NCBI GenBank assembly: GCA_016214655.1
Contig: JACROC010000005.1
Coordinates: forward strand, 195,078 to 259,077
Source: Candidatus Harrisonbacteria bacterium
GTDB lineage: Bacteria; Patescibacteriota; Minisyncoccia; UBA6257; 02-FULL-45-10c
Direction of reading: 5' to 3'
DNA: 64,000 bases
Part shown: positions 4,029 through 60,008 of the stretch, piece by piece
Position numbering within the stretch: the first letter of the stretch is position 1
Layout: every line of letters begins with the position of its first letter
The notes under the pieces: generated by a model
Told to the model about the DNA's origin: nothing
Database searches by the model: none
What the model saw: the letters and a program-made list of their open reading frames with translations, nothing else
Made by a program: the position numbers and the translations under genes

Positions 4029-5777
4029 TTACAAGAGGATAACAACAGCTCTTATTCTCCGTACGCCAGATCCAACAGCTTCCTGTTTCAAAATCTTAAA
4101 TTTTCCGATTTTAAAAGTATTGGCAACATGCGGTCCGCCGCAAAATTCTTTGCTAAAATCACCCATAAAATAAACTTTTACTTTTTCAGGATATTTTTGT
4201 TTAAAGAAATAAAGCGCGCCGGTTTTTTTAGCTTCTTCAATCGGCAACTCTTTATAATAAACTGGCAAGTCTTTTTGGATTGCCTCATTGACTAAATCTT
4301 CTATCTTTTTAACTTCTTCGTCGGTGAGTTTGCGGCTAAACGAGAAATCAAACCTGGTTCGCTCTGCAGTTATATCCGAACCCATCTGATGCACATCTAG
4401 TCCAAGCACATTGCGTAGCGCCTGTTGAAGCAAGTGAGTCGCGGTATGGAGCCGGGTGACTTTTTCCACTTCTTCGGACGTAGAAGCTTTGAGTTCTCCG
4501 GTATCTAAAATAAGACCGTGACCGCCAAATTTTTTCTCCGAACCGGCACGAGAAACCTCCTGATGCTTTTTAAACTCCGCATCAAAATTATCTTTATTTA
4601 AACCTCTTACCTTGGCCGGCACTAATTCACCCAGCAATTCCCACGGCAATCCGAAAGTTTCATAAATATAAAATGCGTCTTTGGCAGTAATAACGTCGTA
4701 TTTTTCGATCTCTTTTATTCCCAGGGCGAGCGCTTTTTCGAATTTTGATTTTTCTTCCATCATTACTGCGAAAATTTCTTTCGTATTTTTCACTTCCGGA
4801 TACGCATCGCCAAAAGTTTCTCTGACAATATCCACAGCCAAAGCAAAAAGCTCCGCGTGAATATCATATTTAATTTCATAAACCATTATCCGGCGAAGTA
4901 ATCTCCTCAAGATATAACCGACTTCCTTATTAGACGGCCGGACGCCGTCGGCAATTAAAAATATTGATGCCCGCAGATGATCCGCCAAAACTCTCAATAC
5001 TTTATCTTCTAGTCCGGATTTTACTTCCTGAATTTTTGAAACAAGCGGATGAAAAAGATCGGTTTCAAATACATTATCAACACCCCGAAGCATTGTGGCT
5101 AAGCGCTCCAGGCCCATGCCGGTATCCACACCAGGCGTTTCCAATTTCCGCAAACTCTTGTCCGAATTCTGATAATATTCGTTAAAGACTAAATTCCAAA
5201 TCTCCACGCCGTCAACATAAATTTCCGTTGTCGGCCCGCAGGGACCTTCATTGCCGGTTGGTCCCCAAAAATTATCCGCCCGGCCATGCTTTTTAATTTT
5301 CTCCTTCGGCAAGCCGATTTCTTCATGCCAAATTCTGAATGATTCTTTATCAAATGGAATCGGGACTTGCCCTGGGCCTGCCGAAAGGTCGCCGCCAAAA
5401 ACCGTAACGGTAACCCGTTCGCGGTCAATTCCTAATTCATTTATGACAAAATCATGCGCCCACCGGATCGCTTCTTTTTTAAAATAACCGCCAAAACTGA
5501 AATTTCCAAGCATCTCAAAAAATGTCAGGTGAGTTTTATCGCCTACCTCATCAATATCCGAAGTCCGAAAACACTTCTGCACCGAAGCGGTATTTTTACT
5601 GCCGAAATCACGAATTGGATCGGCCTTACCAACATAATACGGCTTGAACTGTTGCATACCCGCAGTTGTCAGAAGCACCGAAGGATCGTCCGGAGTCAAA
5701 GAAGAAGACGGCACTACGGCGTGCCTGCGCTCTCGGAAAAAATCTGAAAATTTTTTACGGATTTCGCTAGATTCCAT
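4029..5777 (-). CDS. alaS: alanyl-tRNA synthetase, short form (catalytic plus editing core, no C-Ala domain)
   Basis: The N-terminus has class II AlaS motifs (FKPYY, SVQKCFRTSDIDEVGDKTHLTFFEMLGNFSFGGYFK). The C-terminus is an editing-domain-like HTATHLL...CGGPHV segment. At 582 aa it is far shorter than canonical AlaS of about 870 aa. Confidence 0.85.
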   Translation of the reverse strand: MESSEIRKKFSDFFRERRHAVVPSSSLTPDDPSVLLTTAGMQQFKPYYVGKADPIRDFGSKNTASVQKCFRTSDIDEVGDKTHLTFFEMLGNFSFGGYFKKEAIRWAHDFVINELGIDRERVTVTVFGGDLSAGPGQVPIPFDKESFRIWHEEIGLPKEKIKKHGRADNFWGPTGNEGPCGPTTEIYVDGVEIWNLVFNEYYQNSDKSLRKLETPGVDTGMGLERLATMLRGVDNVFETDLFHPLVSKIQEVKSGLEDKVLRVLADHLRASIFLIADGVRPSNKEVGYILRRLLRRIMVYEIKYDIHAELFALAVDIVRETFGDAYPEVKNTKEIFAVMMEEKSKFEKALALGIKEIEKYDVITAKDAFYIYETFGLPWELLGELVPAKVRGLNKDNFDAEFKKHQEVSRAGSEKKFGGHGLILDTGELKASTSEEVEKVTRLHTATHLLQQALRNVLGLDVHQMGSDITAERTRFDFSFSRKLTDEEVKKIEDLVNEAIQKDLPVYYKELPIEEAKKTGALYFFKQKYPEKVKVYFMGDFSKEFCGGPHVANTFKIGKFKILKQEAVGSGVRRIRAVVILL

Positions 5778-7404: not shown

Positions 7405-7475
7405 ATATATTTTCCCGATTAATTAACTCCTTATTTACTTACAATTAGTATAACATATCAGATACTAAAAAGCCA

Positions 7476-7930
7476 GTAAAAAGAAAGCCCCCTCAACTAC
7501 CAGAAGAGGGGGCGGCGAGCGCCTCGTTTGTCGCTGGTCTCTGATAACCAGCCTAGTCCCGTCGGACTGAGACACTCTAAGGAGCTTATTTGGTTAGATC
7601 GCGCGTACTCCCTATGTCAACCACGCGCGACCAGGAACGCTTACCAGGTGGTCAGAAGACCTGGCGTATCTGTGAGCTGTCTCCCGTGCCCTGCACGAGA
7701 TAACAACCAGGATGCGCTCCACGGTAATACGGATGGGTTTTTCGCTAGGTGGCAACCCAGCTAAAGCAACCTCACGCGTTGCTTTCCTCCCACCGCCCCA
7801 TAATGATCCCTCTTTGAGAAACCACGCTGGAACCAGATTCCAAACTGATGCCTCGGTCCGGTGCCAATGAAGGTACTACAGTCTAGCCGGGGCGCCCCTT
7901 GCGGAGCCTTCCGTCAGCTTCGACAAATTA
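7476..7930 (-). ncRNA. candidate structured ncRNA (class unresolved; size fits RNase P RNA or another large RNA), or a long structured rpoD 3' UTR
   Basis: This 455-nt ORF-free block is GC-rich (about 55-58%) against an approximately 40% GC background. It has many local hairpins, for example CCAGGUCUUCUGACCACCUGG and CGCGCGUGG...ACGCGCG. It ends with a minus-strand intrinsic terminator (cccccuc-N11-gaggggg then CUUUCUUUUU, plus 7476..7508). No tRNA-like T-arm is present, which argues against tmRNA. Confidence 0.35.
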
Positions 7931-7955
7931 AATATAGCATATAATCCAATTCTTG

Positions 7956-9194
7956 TCAATACCCCTCAATTGTGTGCGATTTGCCGTGCTGACGGATGCG
8001 GCTGAGAGCCTTCGCTTCAATCTGGCGGATGCGCTCGCGGGTGACTGCAAACTCCTTTCCTACTTCTTCCAAAGTATGGGTAATTCCATCCTCCAGACCA
8101 AAACGCATCTGAAGAATTTTCTGCTCTCTCGGAGTCAGGTCAACTAAAATTTCTTTGATCCTTTCCCGAAGTAAAGTTTGGGATGCTACCTGCGAGGGAG
8201 TAAGGCTGTGAGTATCTTCAATAAATTCGGACAAAGTTGATTCGTCGTCATCTTCGCCAACCGGCGCCTCAAGCGAAACCACTTCCTGGGAAATTTTCTG
8301 GATATGATGAACCTTCTCCACCGAAATATTCATTTCAATGGCAATTTCTTCCGGCAAAGGATCACGCCCCAATTCCTGCATTAAATGCCGCTTAGCTTGG
8401 GTATATTTAGAAATAGTTTCCACCATATGGACCGGAATACGGATAGTTCTGGATTGGTCAGCAAGAGCGCGGGTAATAGCCTGGCGAATCCACCAGGTTG
8501 CATAAGTAGAAAATTTAAAACCCCGGCGGTAATCAAATTTTGTAACTGCCCTGGCAAGGCCGATATTGCCCTCCTGAACAAGATCTAAAATACTGAGATG
8601 CGGAGTCCTGTTGACGTAGCGCTTGGCAATAGAAACTACCAGCCGGAGATTGGCTTTAATAAATTGCTGGCGGGCCTCTTCATCCCCCTTCTCAATTTTT
8701 TTAGCCAATTCCCGTTCCTGTTCCTGTTTCAAAAGCTCAGTCTTGCCGATCTCTTTAAGATATTGCTGGACTGAATCCGGCAGCTCTCCCTCAAAATGAG
8801 TCGCTTTTTCTAATTCCTTTTTGCTGATTTCATCTTTAGGAAGCTCGATTAACTGGCTGGTTTCCAAAACCTTAATATTAGCGGTCTCCAGCCGGTTATA
8901 AATTTCCTCCAAAAAAGCGACGTCGTCTTCCACGCGCGGAAAATAATGGAGCACTTCCGTATCCGTCACAAAACCACGGCTCTTTCCGCGGTCAATCAAT
9001 TCATTTAAAGCCTCCTCTTCAGCCATAGCTTTCTTCTCGCCCCCCGCTACTTTCTTCGCAGCCACGTTCTTTAAAATTTTCTTTATCTTTTTGATTTTCT
9101 TAGCCTTCTTGGTTTTTTTAACCTTCTTAAGTTTCTTTTTCAGCTTTTTAATTTTTGGCTTTTTTATTTTTTTATTTTTCTTCTTTTTGCTCAT
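7956..9194 (-). CDS. rpoD: RNA polymerase sigma-70 factor RpoD
   Basis: Region 2.4/3 reads [15 protein letters not shown] and region 4 reads [28 protein letters not shown]. The N-terminus is extremely Lys-rich ([15 protein letters not shown]...). The ORF track starts at 9275 and overlaps dnaG. The MSKKKK start at 9194 gives a 14-nt gap after the dnaG stop and is preferred. Confidence 0.9.
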
Positions 9195-26983: not shown

Positions 26984-27961
26984 TTATTTTAAAACTATCC
27001 GGCGCAATTTGTAAGCATTCCCATGCCTCAATAATCCCAAATAAGAATTTATGATTTCTGGTTTTGGCAATTCTTGTATCCTCTTCATCATCCTTCTTTT
27101 AGTCGTTGTCCTTAATATCCGATGATCTAAAAAATTCACCCAGCCAAGAAAATCCACTCCGGAAGCAAGAGTTTTGATGGAAACTTTATTCGGGTGAAGC
27201 TCTAAAGATAATGTCTCATTCAGGAACGCTCTTATAAATAAGAGTGAGCGATTTAATGATTCTTTGTTTTCAGACAAAATCACAAAATCATCCGCATATC
27301 TTATGTAATATCTGGCCTTTAGTTTGTGCTTCATAAATCGGTCAAATTCATTCATATAGATATTGACTAGTAATTGGGAGGTTAGATTGCCTAGCGGCAA
27401 GCCGATTCCTGGCTTAACCTCAAAGCTATCAATGACTCTATCCAATAACCATAAGATATCTTTGTCTGGAATATGGCTGACCAGAATCTTCTTTAAGATG
27501 GAATGGTCAATATTGGCAAAGAATTTCTTGATATCGCACTTTAATATCCAGTAAGTTTGAGTGTTATTTTGACTGACTTTGTAGGAAAAATCCCGAAATC
27601 GGTTAATGGCTTTATGAGTTCCTTTGTTTAGACGGCAGGAATAGGAATCGGCAATAAAAATTTGGTCAAAAAATGGGTAGAGTATCCTATATATTGCGTG
27701 GTGTAATAATCTGTCTCTTACTTGGGCTTTATGGATATTTCTGGGTTTAGGGTCGCAGATATTGAATGCCTGGTACCCGCCGTGTACATACGTTTGGTTG
27801 CGAAGATCATTATGAAGCGATAGGATATTATCCATCAGATTAAAAGAGAATTCCTGGACATCTGGCTTGCTCCTTTTCCCTCTTACAAATTCTTTCCAGG
27901 CCTCTAATAAATTCTCAATGCTAATAATATCTTCAAATTTATGGCGCAATTGAATTTTCAT
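26984..27961 (-). CDS. DGR reverse transcriptase
   Basis: The 325-aa ORF contains RT motifs 1-7. YADD lies within ARYYIRYADDFVIL. The DGR-diagnostic motif 4 reads LPLGNLTSQLLVNIYMNEFD (I/LGxxxSQ). Its size is typical of DGR RTs. Confidence 0.9.
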   Translation of the reverse strand: MKIQLRHKFEDIISIENLLEAWKEFVRGKRSKPDVQEFSFNLMDNILSLHNDLRNQTYVHGGYQAFNICDPKPRNIHKAQVRDRLLHHAIYRILYPFFDQIFIADSYSCRLNKGTHKAINRFRDFSYKVSQNNTQTYWILKCDIKKFFANIDHSILKKILVSHIPDKDILWLLDRVIDSFEVKPGIGLPLGNLTSQLLVNIYMNEFDRFMKHKLKARYYIRYADDFVILSENKESLNRSLLFIRAFLNETLSLELHPNKVSIKTLASGVDFLGWVNFLDHRILRTTTKRRMMKRIQELPKPEIINSYLGLLRHGNAYKLRRIVLK

Positions 27962-27985
27962 AAAAATAATTTTTCCCGGGAAGCG

Positions 27986-27996
27986 CCCCCCCCCCC
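27986..27996. repeat. homopolymeric C11 (G11 on minus) tract in the 40-nt RT/avd divergent intergenic region
   Basis: The sequence gcg-ccccccccccc-gac lies 25 nt upstream of the RT ATG and 6 nt upstream of the avd TTG start. Confidence 0.9.
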
Positions 27997-28001
27997 GACT
28001 T

Positions 28002-28370
28002 TTGCCGCTAATCCAGAAAACTAAGGACGCCTATCTGCTTTGGTATGGCTATTACCAAATCCTGCCTAAACTCCACCGGCACTCTCTAGGTCAGAAAGTT
28101 GATACTCTTTTTGTTGAAATTATAGAAATGCTCTCAACAGCCAATTTTCTTATCAGAGAAGAAAAATTGCCCTATGTTCGTGTGGCTATAAGAAAAGCAG
28201 ATACGCTGAAGATATTTTTAATGATGCTTTGGGAAACTAAATCGCTGGATAATAAAAAATACATCGCATTATCAACACAAATAGGCGAAATAGGCAGAAT
28301 GCTAGGCGGTTGGAGCGGCCAGCTTATCAAACAAGCTCAAGATAAACAAAACTCTCCTGACAAAAAGTGA
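28002..28370 (+). CDS. avd: DGR accessory variability determinant (Avd, four-helix-bundle family)
   Basis: The 122-aa ORF starts at TTG. Its C-terminal helix TQIGEIGRMLGGWSGQLIKQAQDKQ resembles Bordetella phage bAvd AEVGRILGSWIARVNRKGQ. It is encoded on the strand opposite to RT, TR and VR. Confidence 0.75.
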   Translation: MPLIQKTKDAYLLWYGYYQILPKLHRHSLGQKVDTLFVEIIEMLSTANFLIREEKLPYVRVAIRKADTLKIFLMMLWETKSLDNKKYIALSTQIGEIGRMLGGWSGQLIKQAQDKQNSPDKK

Positions 28371-28388
28371 GGAGAGAAATGAAGAGAG

Positions 28389-28514
28389 TTTCGAGAACGG
28401 CAGACGGATCGTTAACATTCCAGTCGTTGTCAAGCCAGTTGTAGTTCCAGTTCCACCTGCCATCGTTCCAGTACAGATACAGGACGTAGCGGTTGCCATT
28501 CGGGTTCCGAAGAA
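28389..28514 (-). repeat. DGR template repeat (TR), 126 nt
   Basis: It is 111/126 identical to the VR. All 15 mismatches are T on the plus strand, which is A on the minus sense strand. The minus-strand translation is Asn-rich (RNPNGNRYVLYLYWNDGRWNWNYNWLDNDWNVNDPSAVL), the AAY-codon signature of TRs. Confidence 0.85.
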
Positions 28515-28783
28515 TTATATGGAATATCGTCTGTGCCACCACCCCTTGAATACTCTTAGAGTTGTATCGTATCCGGTATATCATTCAGTAGAATGACCTA
28601 CTGGGTTAATACCTTAATATTCCATACCAAGTATCTTCATTTTTTGTTGAAGTGTCTGCATACACCACTCTATCCGAAACCGTGATCGCGGATACTCCCG
28701 ATGTATGGATACTGGGTTCGGTAGCGGAAAACCGTAATCGTCCGCGTATTCACCTACTGCCAAATTTATTTTAGCAAAAAAAT

Positions 28784-28817
28784 AATCCCCTGCACAGGCT
28801 TGCCTGTGCAGGGGATT
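28784..28817 (-). terminator. 15-bp perfect hairpin (aatcccctgcacagg-cttg-cctgtgcaggggatt) downstream of the VR, with a U-run on minus
   Basis: The stem-loop sits about 55 nt 3' of the target-gene stop. It is followed on the minus strand by UUAUUUUUUU. It resembles the conserved GC-rich hairpin found 3' of the VR in DGRs and also acts as the target-gene terminator. Confidence 0.6.
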
Positions 28818-28870
28818 CTAAGGGCTAAGTTGCAAAGGGCATACAGTGCAAAGTAACCCAGTACTGAAGA

Positions 28871-29506
28871 CTAACTTGCGAGAACGGCAGACGGACCGTC
28901 AACATCCCAGTCGCTGCCAAGCCAGTTGCAGCTCCAGTGCCACCTGCCATCGAACCAGTACAGACACAGGACGTAGCGGTCGCCATCCGGGTACCGAAGA
29001 ACCGTTCCATCAAAGAAGATGAAACGGATGTTGCCGTTCACCTTCTCTTTCCACGATTCGGGGATGAGGAGCTGGTTCTCCCAGAGCGTCTGGAAGACCT
29101 TGGCATCCAGGCGGATGTGACCCGCCTTCTTCAGCCGTTTCAGCTTTTCCTCACCGGTGATCGACGTCTCGTTCGGATTGAGCATCGTCTCGAAGCGGAC
29201 CTTGGACAGGTCGACTTCGGTGAGCGCCTCCGAACGGGCGTCCGTGTCTTCGCCGACAACCGACCAACCCTTGCCGATGAAGGCGACGGGGTCGAACGGC
29301 TTGGCGCGATCGATCTTCAGGATCTTCGGTTCCCCGACGAGGACCTTTCCGCCGTTCTTGAGGAAGGCAGTGAACTGCTGTCCCGCCTGACGAGGGTCGT
29401 TGATGATTTTCTGGATGGTGTCGCTATCCAGATTGTCCCAGTCTGCGTTGTTAGCGAGGACTGAGAACAGGTTGAGGGACTGACCGGTAGTGATGGCTTT
29501 TCCCAT
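28871..29506 (-). CDS. DGR target protein (variable C-terminal domain; likely C-type-lectin/FGE-like fold)
   Basis: The 211-aa ORF is preceded by AAGGAG about 8 nt upstream. Its C-terminal 41 aa (RYPDGDRYVLCLYWFDGRWHWSCNWLGSDWDVDGPSAVL) are encoded by the VR. The gene body is about 57% GC against about 37% for the adjacent RT. Confidence 0.85.
   Translation of the reverse strand: MGKAITTGQSLNLFSVLANNADWDNLDSDTIQKIINDPRQAGQQFTAFLKNGGKVLVGEPKILKIDRAKPFDPVAFIGKGWSVVGEDTDARSEALTEVDLSKVRFETMLNPNETSITGEEKLKRLKKAGHIRLDAKVFQTLWENQLLIPESWKEKVNGNIRFIFFDGTVLRYPDGDRYVLCLYWFDGRWHWSCNWLGSDWDVDGPSAVLAS
28876..29001 (-). repeat. DGR variable repeat (VR), 126 nt, ending 5 nt before the target stop codon
   Basis: It is the counterpart of the TR. 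On the sense strand the 15 differences are A to G x10, A to C x2 and A to T x3. The 3' end of the VR (CTCGCAAG) diverges from the TR (CTCGAAAC), as expected for IMH versus IMH*. Confidence 0.85.
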
Positions 29507-29701: not shown

Positions 29702-29799
29702 TAAAATAAGGTTTTTGGATATTCAGGCTGGCGGTGGGATCGATTTCGCTCCCTTTAGGGAGCTTTATAAATATAGGCGATATCCAAAAACCTTATTTT
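29702..29799. repeat. 20-bp perfect inverted repeat (aaaataaggtttttggatat / atatccaaaaaccttatttt) enclosing a 58-nt loop with an inner hairpin (gctccc-ttta-gggagc)
   Basis: It lies between the DGR target gene start and the stop of the upstream nucleotidyltransferase gene, whose stop it overlaps. Confidence 0.6.
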
Positions 29800-30551
29800 G
29801 TTTCCGAATCCCACTCTTTAATGGCTTTTTCCCAACGCTGTAAATTCCCACAGTCATGCCACTTCCCTTTTGATTTATAAGCCGCAAGTTTTCGTTCGGC
29901 GGCAAGCTTCGGAAAAAGGTCCTTTTCAATCATTAAAAATTTTTCACCGCTTTGTATTTTGTCGCTTAAATGTTCACGCACTTTCGGGTCAATTAAATAA
30001 AGACCCGAAGAAATAAAATTTGTCGGCGGATTTTCCGGTTTTTCCAAAAAACTGTGGATGTGATCGCCATCGCAAATTAAAACACCATACTCCTGCGGAT
30101 TTGATACTTCCACTGCCGCAATAGTTGCCAATCCTCCGACCTTGCGATGGTGGGCCGCCATTTCAGTCAAATTTACCTCTTTTAATTCATCGCCATTAGT
30201 TAAGAAAAATGGCTCACTGCCAGTCCAGGTATGTAGCTTATGTGCCCAATAGCCAAGCGTACCCATTGGCTCCTCCTCAACCATCAAATTTACCCACACG
30301 CCGCCAAGGTCATTCTGCCAACGCCGCAACCACCAAGAAAAATCTTCAAAATCACCTTGCCTGACCGTAATAGCAACTTCTTCTATGCCATGCTTTTTAA
30401 ACATCTCGATCAAATAATTTATGATCGGTTTTTTATTGACAGTTAAAAGCGGTTTTGGAGTTTCCAAGGTCACCGGATAAAGACGAGCGCCTTTCCCGCC
30501 GGCTAAAATTATTGCTTTGCGAACTTTCTGCATATTATTAAAATACAACAA
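29793..30551 (-). CDS. sugar-phosphate nucleotidyltransferase (RfbA/GlmU-N-like)
   Basis: The N-terminal signature KAIILAGGKGARLYPVTLETPKPLL is that of the NTP_transferase family. Confidence 0.75.
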   Translation of the reverse strand: MLYFNNMQKVRKAIILAGGKGARLYPVTLETPKPLLTVNKKPIINYLIEMFKKHGIEEVAITVRQGDFEDFSWWLRRWQNDLGGVWVNLMVEEEPMGTLGYWAHKLHTWTGSEPFFLTNGDELKEVNLTEMAAHHRKVGGLATIAAVEVSNPQEYGVLICDGDHIHSFLEKPENPPTNFISSGLYLIDPKVREHLSDKIQSGEKFLMIEKDLFPKLAAERKLAAYKSKGKWHDCGNLQRWEKAIKEWDSETK

Positions 30552-30751
30552 ATTTTAAGTAATAAAAGTCATAGAGCTAATTTTGCTAATATCCGTCGCT
30601 TTCTTCCGTGCGGCAATTACGGAACCCTGAAATACTTGGATTTTTGCGAAGCAAAAAATTTCAGGGTGAGGCATAGGCGCTCCGATCCGCAGGAGATCGA
30701 AGACGCCGGTGCCGGTAGGAAGAAAGCAATGGATATAAATAAAAATTAAAT

Positions 30752-31090
30752 AAAAAAAGGCCGGGGAAACCGATGTCGCGTTACAGGCGACTGGTTTCCC
30801 CGGCGGGTAAAACGTTGGCAACGCCCCATCTTAAGCCGTGTATAGGCAGGATGGATAGCGTTGCCAAAATTGGCGGTCGGAAAATGCACTTGGCACTTCA
30901 GGGGGTCGAAGTTTACCTTGGCCCCCTTACTATGCACGCCTTTTGCTCAATTGCCCCCACTTTAGAATAAAGGGGCGGGAGTCGGATGGTTGGCGACCTG
31001 GGAGGATTTCTGCGATCGCCGCGCTAAGGCTCCCATTGAGCAGTCAGGTACCCGCGAAATTATTTGCCTTTCGTGGGTTGCATTTTCCGA
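30752..31090 (-). ncRNA. candidate structured ncRNA or long structured leader (class unresolved)
   Basis: This ORF-free block is about 55% GC. A 14-nt long-range complementarity (GGUCGGAAAAUGCA at 31075..31062 with UGCAUUUUCCGACC at 30889..30876) encloses about 170 nt. It ends in a strong minus-strand terminator (GCCGGGGAAACC...GGUUUCCCCGGC then U7, plus 30752..30804). No T-arm is present. Confidence 0.35.
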
Positions 31091-31317
31091 CCAAATCAAA
31101 GAACGAACTGTAAATATACAATAGCATACTATAAAATTTTGTCAATAGTGACAAATCTTAGAATGGGTTATATAATTTACAATAAATTTGAATAAAGTAC
31201 CCCGTATAAATTTTACTCTTGGATATAGTAAAGATAAAATTTATACGGGATGCTCATTTTTGCAGCCAATCGGGCTGCGTTAGTAAATTAACTTGCCCTC
31301 TTGGGCAAAAATGGCAC

Positions 31318-31893
31318 ATGCTAAGCTACAACGAATTAAAAATTGGAACGATGTTCAAGTTTGAAGGAACTCCGTATGAGGTGCTGGATTATGAGTTCCT
31401 CCGGATGCAACAGAGAAAACCGGTCGCCAAGACTAGGATTAAAAATCTGCTTACGGGCCAAGTAATTGAACGAAACTTCCACCAAAATGAATCGCTGGAA
31501 TCCATAGAAATAGACAGGCAGGAGATCGTCTACTTATACAATAATCGCGGTGAGTTTTGGTTCTGCGAAAAAGGCAACCCGAAGAACCGCTTCAAACTGG
31601 AAGAATCCAAAATCGGACCGGCTGCAAAATTCCTAAAATCAAACAGCGAAGTCACGGCTGTAAAACTGGATGACCAGATTATCAGCGTTAAAGCGCCGAT
31701 TAAAATTGATTTGAAAATTACCGAAGCGCCTCCAGGAGAACGAGGCAACACTGCCCAAGGCGGAAGCAAGCTGGCTACCGTAGAAACTGGCGCTCAAGTT
31801 TATGTGCCGCTCTTCGTAAACACGGGTGATGTCATACGGGTAAATACAGAAACCGGACAATACGTTGAAAGAATGGAAAAGTCCAAGGAATAA
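31318..31893 (+). CDS. efp: elongation factor P
   Basis: The sequence KIGTMFKFEGTPYEVLDYEFLRMQQRKPVAKTRIKNLLTGQVIERNF has the KOW-like and OB domains of EF-P. The ORF track starts at 31219, but the Met at 31318 gives a canonical protein of about 190 aa. Confidence 0.85.
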   Translation: MLSYNELKIGTMFKFEGTPYEVLDYEFLRMQQRKPVAKTRIKNLLTGQVIERNFHQNESLESIEIDRQEIVYLYNNRGEFWFCEKGNPKNRFKLEESKIGPAAKFLKSNSEVTAVKLDDQIISVKAPIKIDLKITEAPPGERGNTAQGGSKLATVETGAQVYVPLFVNTGDVIRVNTETGQYVERMEKSKE

Positions 31894-59062: not shown

Positions 59063-59562
59063 AATTTTTTCGACCTCTCATTTAAGACTAATAATAATTT
59101 CTTAATTGGCATTGTTAACATCATCGCAACCTGCGCCAGCAATACTTCTCTTGGCGGCAGAGTGGCAATTGCCTTAAACTCATTAGAATCAACAACTCTA
59201 TTCTCATTGGCATCATAAGCTCCCGCTACCAAAAACTCTCCTTTTTTCTTTTTAGCCAAGTCCTTGGCGAATTTATGCACCAATCCGGCAACCGAAGTTA
59301 AATCGCCTTTAGAAAATATCGTGGCTAACTGGGTTTTTGTATTGGCGGGATCAAAAGAAACTCCGGTATTCTTCAGCACTAAATTAAGCAGTCTCTTTTT
59401 CAAAACTTTCACCTCTGCTCCAACTTTTTTCAATTCACCCCTGAGCTTTTTTAAATCCTCAACCAATACCCCATTAAATTCGGTAAAGACCAGAGATTTG
59501 CTTTCCTTAACTTTCTTGATGCCTTCCTCTATAACTGATGTTTTTTGTTTTTTAGTTAACAT
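59056..59562 (-). CDS. rplJ: 50S ribosomal protein L10
   Basis: The 168-aa ORF begins MLTKKQKTSVIEEGIKKVKESKSLVFTEFNGVLVEDLKKLRGEL. Its position upstream of rplL is as in the L10-L12 operon. Confidence 0.85.
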   Translation of the reverse strand: MLTKKQKTSVIEEGIKKVKESKSLVFTEFNGVLVEDLKKLRGELKKVGAEVKVLKKRLLNLVLKNTGVSFDPANTKTQLATIFSKGDLTSVAGLVHKFAKDLAKKKKGEFLVAGAYDANENRVVDSNEFKAIATLPPREVLLAQVAMMLTMPIKKLLLVLNERSKKLT

Positions 59563-59708
59563 ATTACTTAACTAACTATTAAATTAAAATAGACCTTTCG
59601 GTCCATAGACAACCACAATAAAAGTGGTAACTTCCTCGACGGGACTTAACAGTACCTTTTGTACAAATGCAGCGATATATTGGAAGCTCACAAATTAAGA
59701 TGAGATCA

Positions 59709-59863
59709 AGGCGCGACGACGAAACTGTGGTTTTAACCACGTTGAGGAGGAGCAACGCAGAGATCACTTAATTTTAAGCTTCTCTACGAGCCAGAATCTT
59801 TTTTCTTCTGGCGTTGTTGCTCGTCGCTAGTGTATCTAAAGATACACTTCGCTTCTCGCGCCT
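59709..59863. repeat. structured intergenic repeat family, copy 3 (AGGCGCGACGACGAAAC - hairpin gtggtt-tt-aaccac - GAGGAGGAGCAACGCAG ... CGTTGTTGCTCGTCGC - hairpin gtgtatc-taaa-gatacac - CTCGCGCCT), in the rplJ upstream region
   Basis: It shares the 5' box, the hairpin class and the GGAGGAGCAACGCAG box with copy 2. It shares the GTTGCTCGTCG and CTCGCGCCT boxes with copy 1. The 5' AGGCGCG is complementary to the 3' CGCGCCT. Confidence 0.6.
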
Positions 59864-60008
59864 AGCCAGAGAGAAAAAATCTTTCTGGCCAATAATCGTT
59901 GAATTTATATAAAAGGTACACTTGCCCGTTGTCTACGGATTAATAACTAGTATAGCAGGCTTATAAAATATGTCAACAAAAAACCGCCCAAGGGGGCGGC
60001 TTCGCCTC

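Follow-up and report, generated by a model that had tools for sequence, protein, structure and literature searches.

What is encoded in a GC-rich stretch of DNA in which no gene can be recognized? The question is raised by a block lying between two divergent genes in a 64,000-nt stretch (hereafter the window) of the Candidatus Harrisonbacteria contig JACROC010000005.1: an NTP_transferase gene (29793-30533, minus strand, ATG at 30533; Pfam PF00483, E = 6e-41) and efp, which starts at 31318 on the plus strand. The EF-P protein of the window has a 100% identical counterpart in a Candidatus Harrisonbacteria genome, which belongs to the Candidate Phyla Radiation (CPR); an exact look-up of its sequence in a protein collection returned no record. 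Taken over 200 nt at a time, the GC content is 0.50-0.55 across 30581-31092 and 0.47-0.55 across 30600-31100, against 41.7% for the whole window. The first-pass annotation had described the block as GC-rich and devoid of open reading frames (ORFs), and this description holds, with no credible ORF and no protein match. The ORFs across the block are short, its stop-free stretches reaching at most 90 aa, with several of 60-90 codons. None of six local ORFs is on record in a collection of 15 billion proteins, and all frames of the block joined as a single query found no match among 5.8 billion proteins at E-values up to 10. A phmmer search with an 84-aa frame, the longest stop-free one wholly inside the RNA gene described below, retrieved just two unrelated repeat proteins from 1.84 billion representatives.

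The block, which the first-pass annotation had treated as a single unit, is composite. Two-thirds of it (30750-31111, minus strand) are occupied by what we hold, with moderate confidence, to be a stand-alone gene encoding a structured non-coding RNA (ncRNA) of ~360 nt, here called RNA B, and the other third (30581-30744, plus strand) is element A, a separate copy of a structured mobile repeat. The hairpin content of the block is real and far beyond chance: with z-scores of -8.1 (minus strand) and -8.0 (plus strand), the fold of 30740-31100 is equaled by none of 100 shuffles. To place the block in context, the NTP_transferase/efp neighborhoods of relatives were collected via their EF-P proteins, and the resulting loci are cited below by number (L001 and so on). 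The window has 784 nt between the two genes, compared with 28-224 nt for L001-L008 and L013/L014 and 90 nt for L083. Nothing similar to 30745-31110 is found in these loci, so that, compared with most relatives, the block is an addition.

Homologues of 30750-31145 are found at the same NTP_transferase/efp position in L085/L086 and L087/L088, which were reached by walking through EF-P relatives (the EF-P of L085/L086 is 82% identical to that of the window, and that of L087/L088 ~96% identical to that of L085). With a profile built from the window, L085 and L087 sequences, a fourth homologue was recognized in L067 (nhmmer E = 1.8e-11), where the gene order is mnmA, an unrelated 168-aa gene, RNA B and comEC. 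In all four members the parts follow one another in a single order and orientation: promoter, short unpaired 5' tail, helices P1-P8 and intrinsic terminator; P3 of L067, which is missing from the minimum-energy fold of that sequence, was drawn by hand. The structural alignment was hand-built from each sequence's own minimum-energy fold, so that its covariation is a tally and not a formal test. Of its 79 pair columns, 26 are compensatory, seven show one-sided G·U changes and 46 are invariant, and only one of 279 cells is unpaired. Read on the window's minus strand, the pairs include 24 G·U as opposed to one A·C, and the unpaired junction sequences are conserved while the stems covary. Three of the checks that the first-pass annotation had proposed were carried out: P1-P8 and compensatory change are shared by the four members, and the Rfam search yielded no family (see below). 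The comparison establishes the structure of RNA B, its minus-strand sense and its promoter and terminator signals.

A model of the conserved 3' half of RNA B (model R2) recovered only the known members from 557 kb of related DNA, with one match per locus group, and B appears to be single-copy. Neither blastn against phage and plasmid collections nor a conserved-motif scan of viral contigs yielded a homologue, and back-translated six-frame peptides likewise had no match in Genome Taxonomy Database (GTDB) genomes (the source genome not being among them), JGI metagenomes or viral contigs. Against the 4227 families of Rfam 15, positions 30400-31400 gave no match at gathering score and, at E-values up to 10, only chance matches that scored far under the threshold; L001-L013 likewise gave none at gathering score, with L085, L087 and L067 lying outside that scan. 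RNA B belongs to a small and apparently single-copy family of RNAs in Harrisonbacteria-type CPR bacteria that lies outside Rfam.

The signals flanking RNA B fit those of a transcription unit. The window contains five occurrences of the motif TTGACA-N12-16-TGnTAWWnT where 0.05 would be expected, a 100-fold excess that none of 100 shuffles reaches, and all five sites are on the minus strand. They precede infA-rpmJ, another ORF-free GC-rich block (the site at 7931-7959), the target gene of a diversity-generating retroelement (DGR), a structured region ahead of a probable rplJ, and B itself (31118-31145). The motif is evidently the organism's strong promoter, as judged from its sequence and distribution, and is directed into B; in all four members it takes the form TTGACA-16/17-TGn-TAnnnT. 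The predicted transcript would run from ~31111, a start placed by means of the promoter, to ~30752, giving ~360 nt. At its far end the first-pass annotation had seen a double hairpin terminator with an inner GTCGC/GCGAC stem and U7 on the minus strand, and it was right: the hairpin GCCGGGGAAACC...GGTTTCCCCGGC (30760-30804) has an energy of -31.9 kcal/mol and, in the ensemble predicted for the whole transcript, a pairing probability of 0.999. The terminators of L085 and L087 are homologous to it, with four compensatory changes, and that of L067 is non-homologous and in the same place; across the four members the terminator hairpins range from -16 to -33 kcal/mol, with probabilities of 0.96-1.0.

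The individual parts are listed in Table 1. Some details of the earlier description change with them. The 14-nt perfect pairing reported there exists as P1, but the partner of 30875-30888 is 31079-31092 and not 31062-31075; the domain that it closes is 218 nt long (190 nt between the arms) and not ~170 nt. The ggcaacgc/gcgttgcc and ccatc/gatgg helices are present too, but are not nested in that domain: they lie outside P1 and before the terminator as hairpin H2, which is absent in L085 and L087 and replaced by an unrelated hairpin at the same place in L067. P5a differs in length between members, and a CAGUUC-UUUGAUUUG element in the 5' tail is common to the window and L067.

Table 1. Positions of RNA B, element A and neighboring features in the window
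Feature	Positions	Strand	Remarks
Promoter of RNA B	31145-31118	minus	TTGACA, 16 nt, TGc-TATTGT; putative extended -10; 10/12 matches, TG present
5' tail of RNA B	31093-31111	minus	short, U/C-rich (…CAGUUCGUUCUUUGAUUU), unpaired in the minimum-energy fold
Core domain of RNA B	30875-31092	minus	helices P1-P8, predicted folds
P1	31092-31079 with 30888-30875	minus	perfect 14-bp closing stem
P2 hairpin	31078-31050	minus	RNA B core
P3	31048-31046 with 30941-30939	minus	RNA B core
P4	31042-31035 with 30951-30944	minus	RNA B core
P5	31034-31029 with 30983-30977	minus	encloses variable P5a (31020-30992)
P6 hairpin	30976-30953	minus	RNA B core
P7	30937-30932 with 30896-30892	minus	RNA B core
P8 hairpin	30927-30900	minus	RNA B core
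Extra hairpin H2	30815-30867	minus	ggcaacgc/gcgttgcc, ccatc/gatgg; between core domain and terminator; varies by lineage
Intrinsic terminator of RNA B	30804-30752	minus	12-bp + 5-bp hairpin (30804-30760), one C, U7 (30758-30752)
A-family element, one copy	30581-30744 (core 30599-30731)	plus	model R1, 126.8 bits
A/T-rich stretch by NTP_transferase start	30534-30580	minus	ATGACT-N18-TTGTAT; aligns with TTGACT-N18-TTATAT in L085, L087
DGR reverse transcriptase	26984-27961	minus	RVT_1, E = 1e-24
bAvd-like protein of DGR	28002-28370	plus	
DGR target gene	28871-29506	minus	211 aa, GC-rich

How such an RNA would act is the next question. On the reading we prefer, it would be a structural RNA, highly expressed from its own strong sigma-70-type promoter, its short U/C-rich 5' tail would stay unpaired, its body would fold into a P1-closed domain with seven further helices around conserved junctions, and it would be released at the very stable intrinsic terminator, element A having presumably landed between that terminator and the NTP_transferase gene. 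We infer that it is a stable RNA with a trans-acting role, most likely binding a protein or exerting a regulatory function, and that it possibly pairs through the free 5' tail. The first-pass annotation had offered an independent ncRNA and a leader of the downstream minus-strand gene side by side, placing that gene ~200 nt past the terminator, where NTP_transferase indeed begins after ~200-220 nt. As a cis-acting 5' leader, either riboswitch-like or a protein-dependent attenuator, B would use its P1 domain to sense a signal and set the read-through into NTP_transferase or comEC, which we consider unlikely, though it is the main rival. As in riboswitches and attenuators, every member combines a promoter, a conserved P1-closed domain, an intrinsic terminator and a same-strand gene, and the junction sequences are highly conserved, as those of ligand pockets are. 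Several observations speak for a leader and so weigh against a stand-alone gene: in L085 and L067 the terminator lies just ~40 nt before the same-strand start codon, the usual leader layout; a short U/C-rich stretch can form a weak helix with GGGGAA in the 5' arm of the terminator, of 6 bp in L085/L087 and of 8 bp in the window; and close to the NTP_transferase start the window offers only weak promoter candidates (8/12). A stand-alone gene is nevertheless favored, because the downstream genes differ, the spacer tolerates insertions and no convincing antiterminator is apparent. The gene after B is NTP_transferase in three loci and comEC in L067, which are functionally unrelated, as opposed to the related genes expected behind a leader, and most of the relatives' orthologous NTP_transferase genes lack B. 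Between terminator and gene, nothing is inserted in L085, but the window has the A-family element (~165 nt) and L087 a different palindrome of ~200 nt. The motif (T/A)TGACT-N18-TTRTAT stays next to NTP_transferase in the window, L085 and L087, on the far side of these insertions, and its form in the window, ATGACT-N18-TTGTAT, may be the gene's own weak promoter. In the window and L067 a stable hairpin intervenes between P1 and the terminator, and the terminator, at -32 to -33 kcal/mol and a probability of ~1.0, far outweighs the competing helix. A separate gene would have its own promoter, a 3' terminator and compensatory structure on the transcribed strand, all of which are seen in B, the last in four sequences and a hand-built alignment. 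The homologues, the compensatory changes and the 24:1 ratio of G·U to A·C thus back the ncRNA proposed for 30750-31111, and the leader option is weakened.

That evidence has counterweights of its own. The four distinct sequences come from three lineages, L085 and L087 being close, the alignment was fitted to predicted folds and is biased towards pairing, and most relatives with the same gene order have no B at this position. In the window alone, moreover, the plus strand gives the better fold (-170.5 vs -157.0 kcal/mol for the minus strand) and the larger number of G·U pairs (13 vs 6); a plus-strand call made on these grounds was dropped in favor of the minus strand in view of the family-wide 24 G·U vs one A·C. 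Were B to work on the plus strand, it would be co-transcribed with element A, itself a plus-strand element, or form a long efp leader, and a promoter-like site exists on that strand (30517-30544, 9/12). Nonetheless, the antisense of L085 loses the shared architecture (-126.9 kcal/mol, z -4.0, compared with -132.9 and z -7.4 for the sense strand), the other strand of L067 is 23 kcal/mol worse (-148.6 vs -171.7), the conserved promoter and terminator serve the minus strand with no plus-strand terminator past 31092, efp has its own promoter (31148-31176, 11/12), and L085 carries B without A. Less improbable than this, though still very unlikely, is that the whole block is selfish palindromic DNA, a nest of insertions resembling miniature inverted-repeat transposable elements (MITEs) or repetitive extragenic palindromic (REP) sequences, whose hairpins serve transposition and whose B part makes no functional RNA. 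This is the correct reading for 30581-30744; the stems are long and perfect (14, 12 and 10 bp), the spacer is short in most relatives, and the locus looks like an insertion hot spot, having received the A-family copy, the L087 palindrome and the DGR cassette beyond NTP_transferase. For B, however, it conflicts with its single-copy status in 557 kb, set against 91 catalogued A-family copies in the loci examined, with the retention of promoter and terminator in a fixed orientation in four of four members, with unpaired junctions conserved while the stems covary, and with the 24:1 G·U to A·C ratio, which points to selection on one transcribed strand. The plus-strand option is less probable again, and hardly credible at all is the last one, namely that the block is the decayed remnant of a GC-rich protein-coding gene. 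A GC-rich and probably acquired DGR target gene is indeed nearby, and there are the stop-free stretches of 60-90 codons, but the protein searches described above and the back-translated scans of genomes, metagenomes and viral contigs disclosed no relative, and the substitutions between homologues track base pairing and not codon positions. The first-pass annotation had named lack of conservation and a coding origin as what would refute it; what was found instead is a set of homologues and no protein match.

Other identities were tried for B and rejected: it is not a diverged A-family copy (the A model scores at most 4 bits on it), the 14-bp P1 arms are not MITE ends (no further copy of the arm exists in 82 loci), and it is not part of the neighboring DGR, to which it has no sequence link and without which it occurs in L085.

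Among known systems, RNA B is closest in kind to the orphan structured ncRNAs that stand out as GC-rich stretches between the genes of AT-rich bacteria, such as raiA, OLE, ROOL and HEARO-type RNAs. Like these, it is a GC-rich island in an AT-rich genome, spans several hundred nucleotides with many covarying helices and conserved junctions, has its own promoter and terminator, and shows a narrow phylogenetic range; unlike them, it matches nothing in Rfam 15 and has so far been seen only in Harrisonbacteria-type CPR DNA, with four members. With the housekeeping RNAs (RNase P RNA, tmRNA, 6S RNA and long SRP RNA) it shares single-copy status, a strong promoter, a structured length of 300-400 nt and paired 5' and 3' parts. 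Yet no Rfam model of these matches, ARAGORN reports four tRNAs and no tmRNA in the window, and by eye B lacks an GGAAAGUCC-type P4 strand, a tRNA-like end and a tag reading frame; its architecture is also unlike that of 6S RNA, for which a rod with a central bubble would be expected. With respect to riboswitches, the points of difference are those weighed above: the missing antiterminator, the unrelated downstream genes, the insertion-tolerant spacer, the hairpin between P1 and terminator in two members and the absence of B from most orthologous genes. No CPR RNA motif or repeat of this kind was found described in the literature, our coverage of which is incomplete, and both RNA B and the A family appear to be undescribed. 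We class both as new families of known kinds, one an orphan structured ncRNA gene and the other a structured mobile repeat.

New orphan RNA families turn up regularly, and organisms of the CPR are mostly unculturable. To our knowledge, the CPR or Patescibacteria, with their tiny genomes, have very few described non-coding RNAs, and we know of conserved, strongly promoted RNAs in these genomes only as rarities; RNA B is a specific candidate for RNA biology peculiar to a lineage of the CPR. A bolder proposal, which we regard as unlikely, is that B is a new and unusually large sensing RNA (core ~215 nt, eight helices) gating terminator read-through into genes for the cell envelope or DNA uptake (the sugar-nucleotide transferase or ComEC) in episymbiotic CPR bacteria, its ligand being, for instance, a nucleotide sugar or a metabolite from the host, or else the RNA subunit of a CPR-specific ribonucleoprotein; and that, separately, the A family is an RNA directing its own mobilization instead of a passive MITE.

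Element A belongs to a family of structured mobile elements with many copies. Members of the family are ~130-165 nt long and possess an outer stem that is long and A/T-rich, a CGGCA/UGCCG stem that is conserved and a three-way junction from which two hairpins branch, along with the conserved motifs GGCAAYUACGGA, GCUUGG, GAGGCGUAGG, CGCAGGAG and CCGGUGCCG. The window copy is bounded by its own 35-nt imperfect stem and contains the inverted repeat that the first-pass annotation had put near 30626-30668, which is real and lies at 30624-30667. The family came to light when blastn tied 30604-30715 to sites in L013 and L007, and a covariance model (R1) detects one copy in the window and more in those two loci. 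A pattern made of the invariant motifs picks out 18 sites in GTDB genomes, all labeled Harrisonbacteria, Paceibacter or 'Patescibacteria group' and at least seven of the family's sites being on one 608-kb contig, and a further 50 sites in metagenome contigs. With R1, 27 copies are found in the 18 GTDB loci (five genomes) and 61 more in the 50 metagenome loci; in total 91 A-family copies have been catalogued, all in Harrisonbacteria- or Paceibacter-type DNA.

Compensatory changes were seen at 32 of 46 predicted pairs in the first five copies. In the set of 27, 97.3% of cells are paired and 41 of the 46 pairs are changed on both sides, a result matched by none of 500 shuffles, with no slid register coming close. 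On the window's plus strand G·U pairs exceed A·C in both sets (55 vs 10 in the 27 copies and 112 vs 32 in the 61). No consistent promoter of their own was found among the copies. The outer stem varies from 16 to 35 bp and GCGAG-like words occur on both flanks, with no clean target-site duplication definable.

The distribution of copies points to mobility and to a preference for gene ends. Element A is present at the window site and absent in L085. Conversely, L007 has two copies between efp and a TraG-like gene, a site that is free of them in the window, L001 and L005, where these two genes nearly touch or overlap; the L007 pair (4586-4895, equivalent to L022 6711-7020) is inverted, separated by 40 nt, and fills the gap between the convergent genes. 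The stop codon of an opposite-strand ORF lies just past the 3' end in 46 of the 91 copies, and within 16 nt of it in 25. The window copy abuts the 3' end of B just as other copies abut those of convergent genes, its own 3' end being 8 nt from the U7 of B, which takes the place of the convergent gene; this too speaks for B as a gene in its own right. The spacer between the RNA B terminator and NTP_transferase has been entered in L087 as well (2222-2419; also L088), there by a nested palindrome with 24-nt outer arms that are 96% complementary and perfect 25-nt inner arms; as it occupies the same site as the window copy of A, this looks like an insertion hot spot.

Seven of the 91 copies are inside long ORFs, including mnmA of L013 (266-396) and L067 (711-841), where the element is antisense and the frame stays open throughout. 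The outcome in MnmA is an insertion of ~30 residues beyond what relatives have, at a variable loop (...ASWYISDGTGVRLLQWQTAP...). The nearest analogues of the A family are Rickettsia palindromic elements (RPEs), from which in-frame repeat insertion is best known, and MITE/REP-type repeats such as ERIC and Correia. Like A, these are short, multi-copy, palindromic, mostly intergenic at gene ends, variably present between relatives and in some cases located in coding genes with the frame open. Unlike them, A has a three-way junction with conserved unpaired motifs in place of a simple hairpin, covaries strongly with a strand asymmetry of 167 G·U to 42 A·C, and ends within 16 nt of an opposite-strand stop codon in 25 copies; no transposase was linked to the family, no search aimed at one having been made. 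Structured repeats that insert in frame seem to be undescribed so far in the CPR. The family indicates that these reduced genomes still host active structured mobile repeats at gene ends, and that copies may be located in frame within essential genes, mnmA among them, which bears on gene calling and on the 'insertions' often noted in CPR proteins. Both RNA B and the A family can now be searched for with covariance models.

As for the surroundings, the DGR (26984-29506) adjoins the NTP_transferase gene on its left, at a place where relatives such as L085 have the Mur ligase gene directly beside NTP_transferase. The C-terminus of its target protein (...LYWFDGRWHWSCNWLGSDWDVDG...) matches an Asn-rich, template-like copy at ~28330-28500 (...LYWNDGRWNWNYNWLDNDWNVND...). 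On the other side of the block, efp has a near-consensus promoter of its own on the plus strand (GTGACA-17-TATAAT), followed by a 5' untranslated region of ~135 nt with a 20-bp hairpin (31196-31254) leading into UCAUUUUU, which is terminator-like, and two smaller hairpins; judged by these features, the region may be an efp attenuator. A hairpin in the L007 spacer begins with the same ACCCCGUA.

Two other intergenic regions of the window carry the same strong promoter type. Positions 7470-7960 (minus strand) form a second ORF-free GC-rich block (0.52-0.58) with a promoter at 7959-7931 (11/12, TG present) and a terminator at 7509-7488 followed by a U-run; this is probably another structured RNA, of ~440 nt, for which there is neither an Rfam match at E-values up to 10 nor a homologue in 82 loci (~473 kb). 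At 59560-59950, also on the minus strand, ~390 nt separate a promoter (59976-59949) from the probable rplJ (59562) and fold with -150 kcal/mol. Segments of this region are 71-93% identical to intergenic DNA in L011 (1550-1790), L020 (6030-6215) and L047 (2152-2194), the L011 match being part of a 670-nt structured spacer upstream of efp (z = -8.2) in which the element is oppositely oriented; together these regions constitute a third structured intergenic family. Finally, CPR MnmA proteins (L005, L007) show recurrent short peptide insertions at several positions, LPAGRQV being one example. Their back-translated DNA (roughly CTGCCGGCAGGCAG, deduced from the peptides and not read from the loci) would be palindromic, which hints that other small hairpin repeats may also have been inserted in frame.

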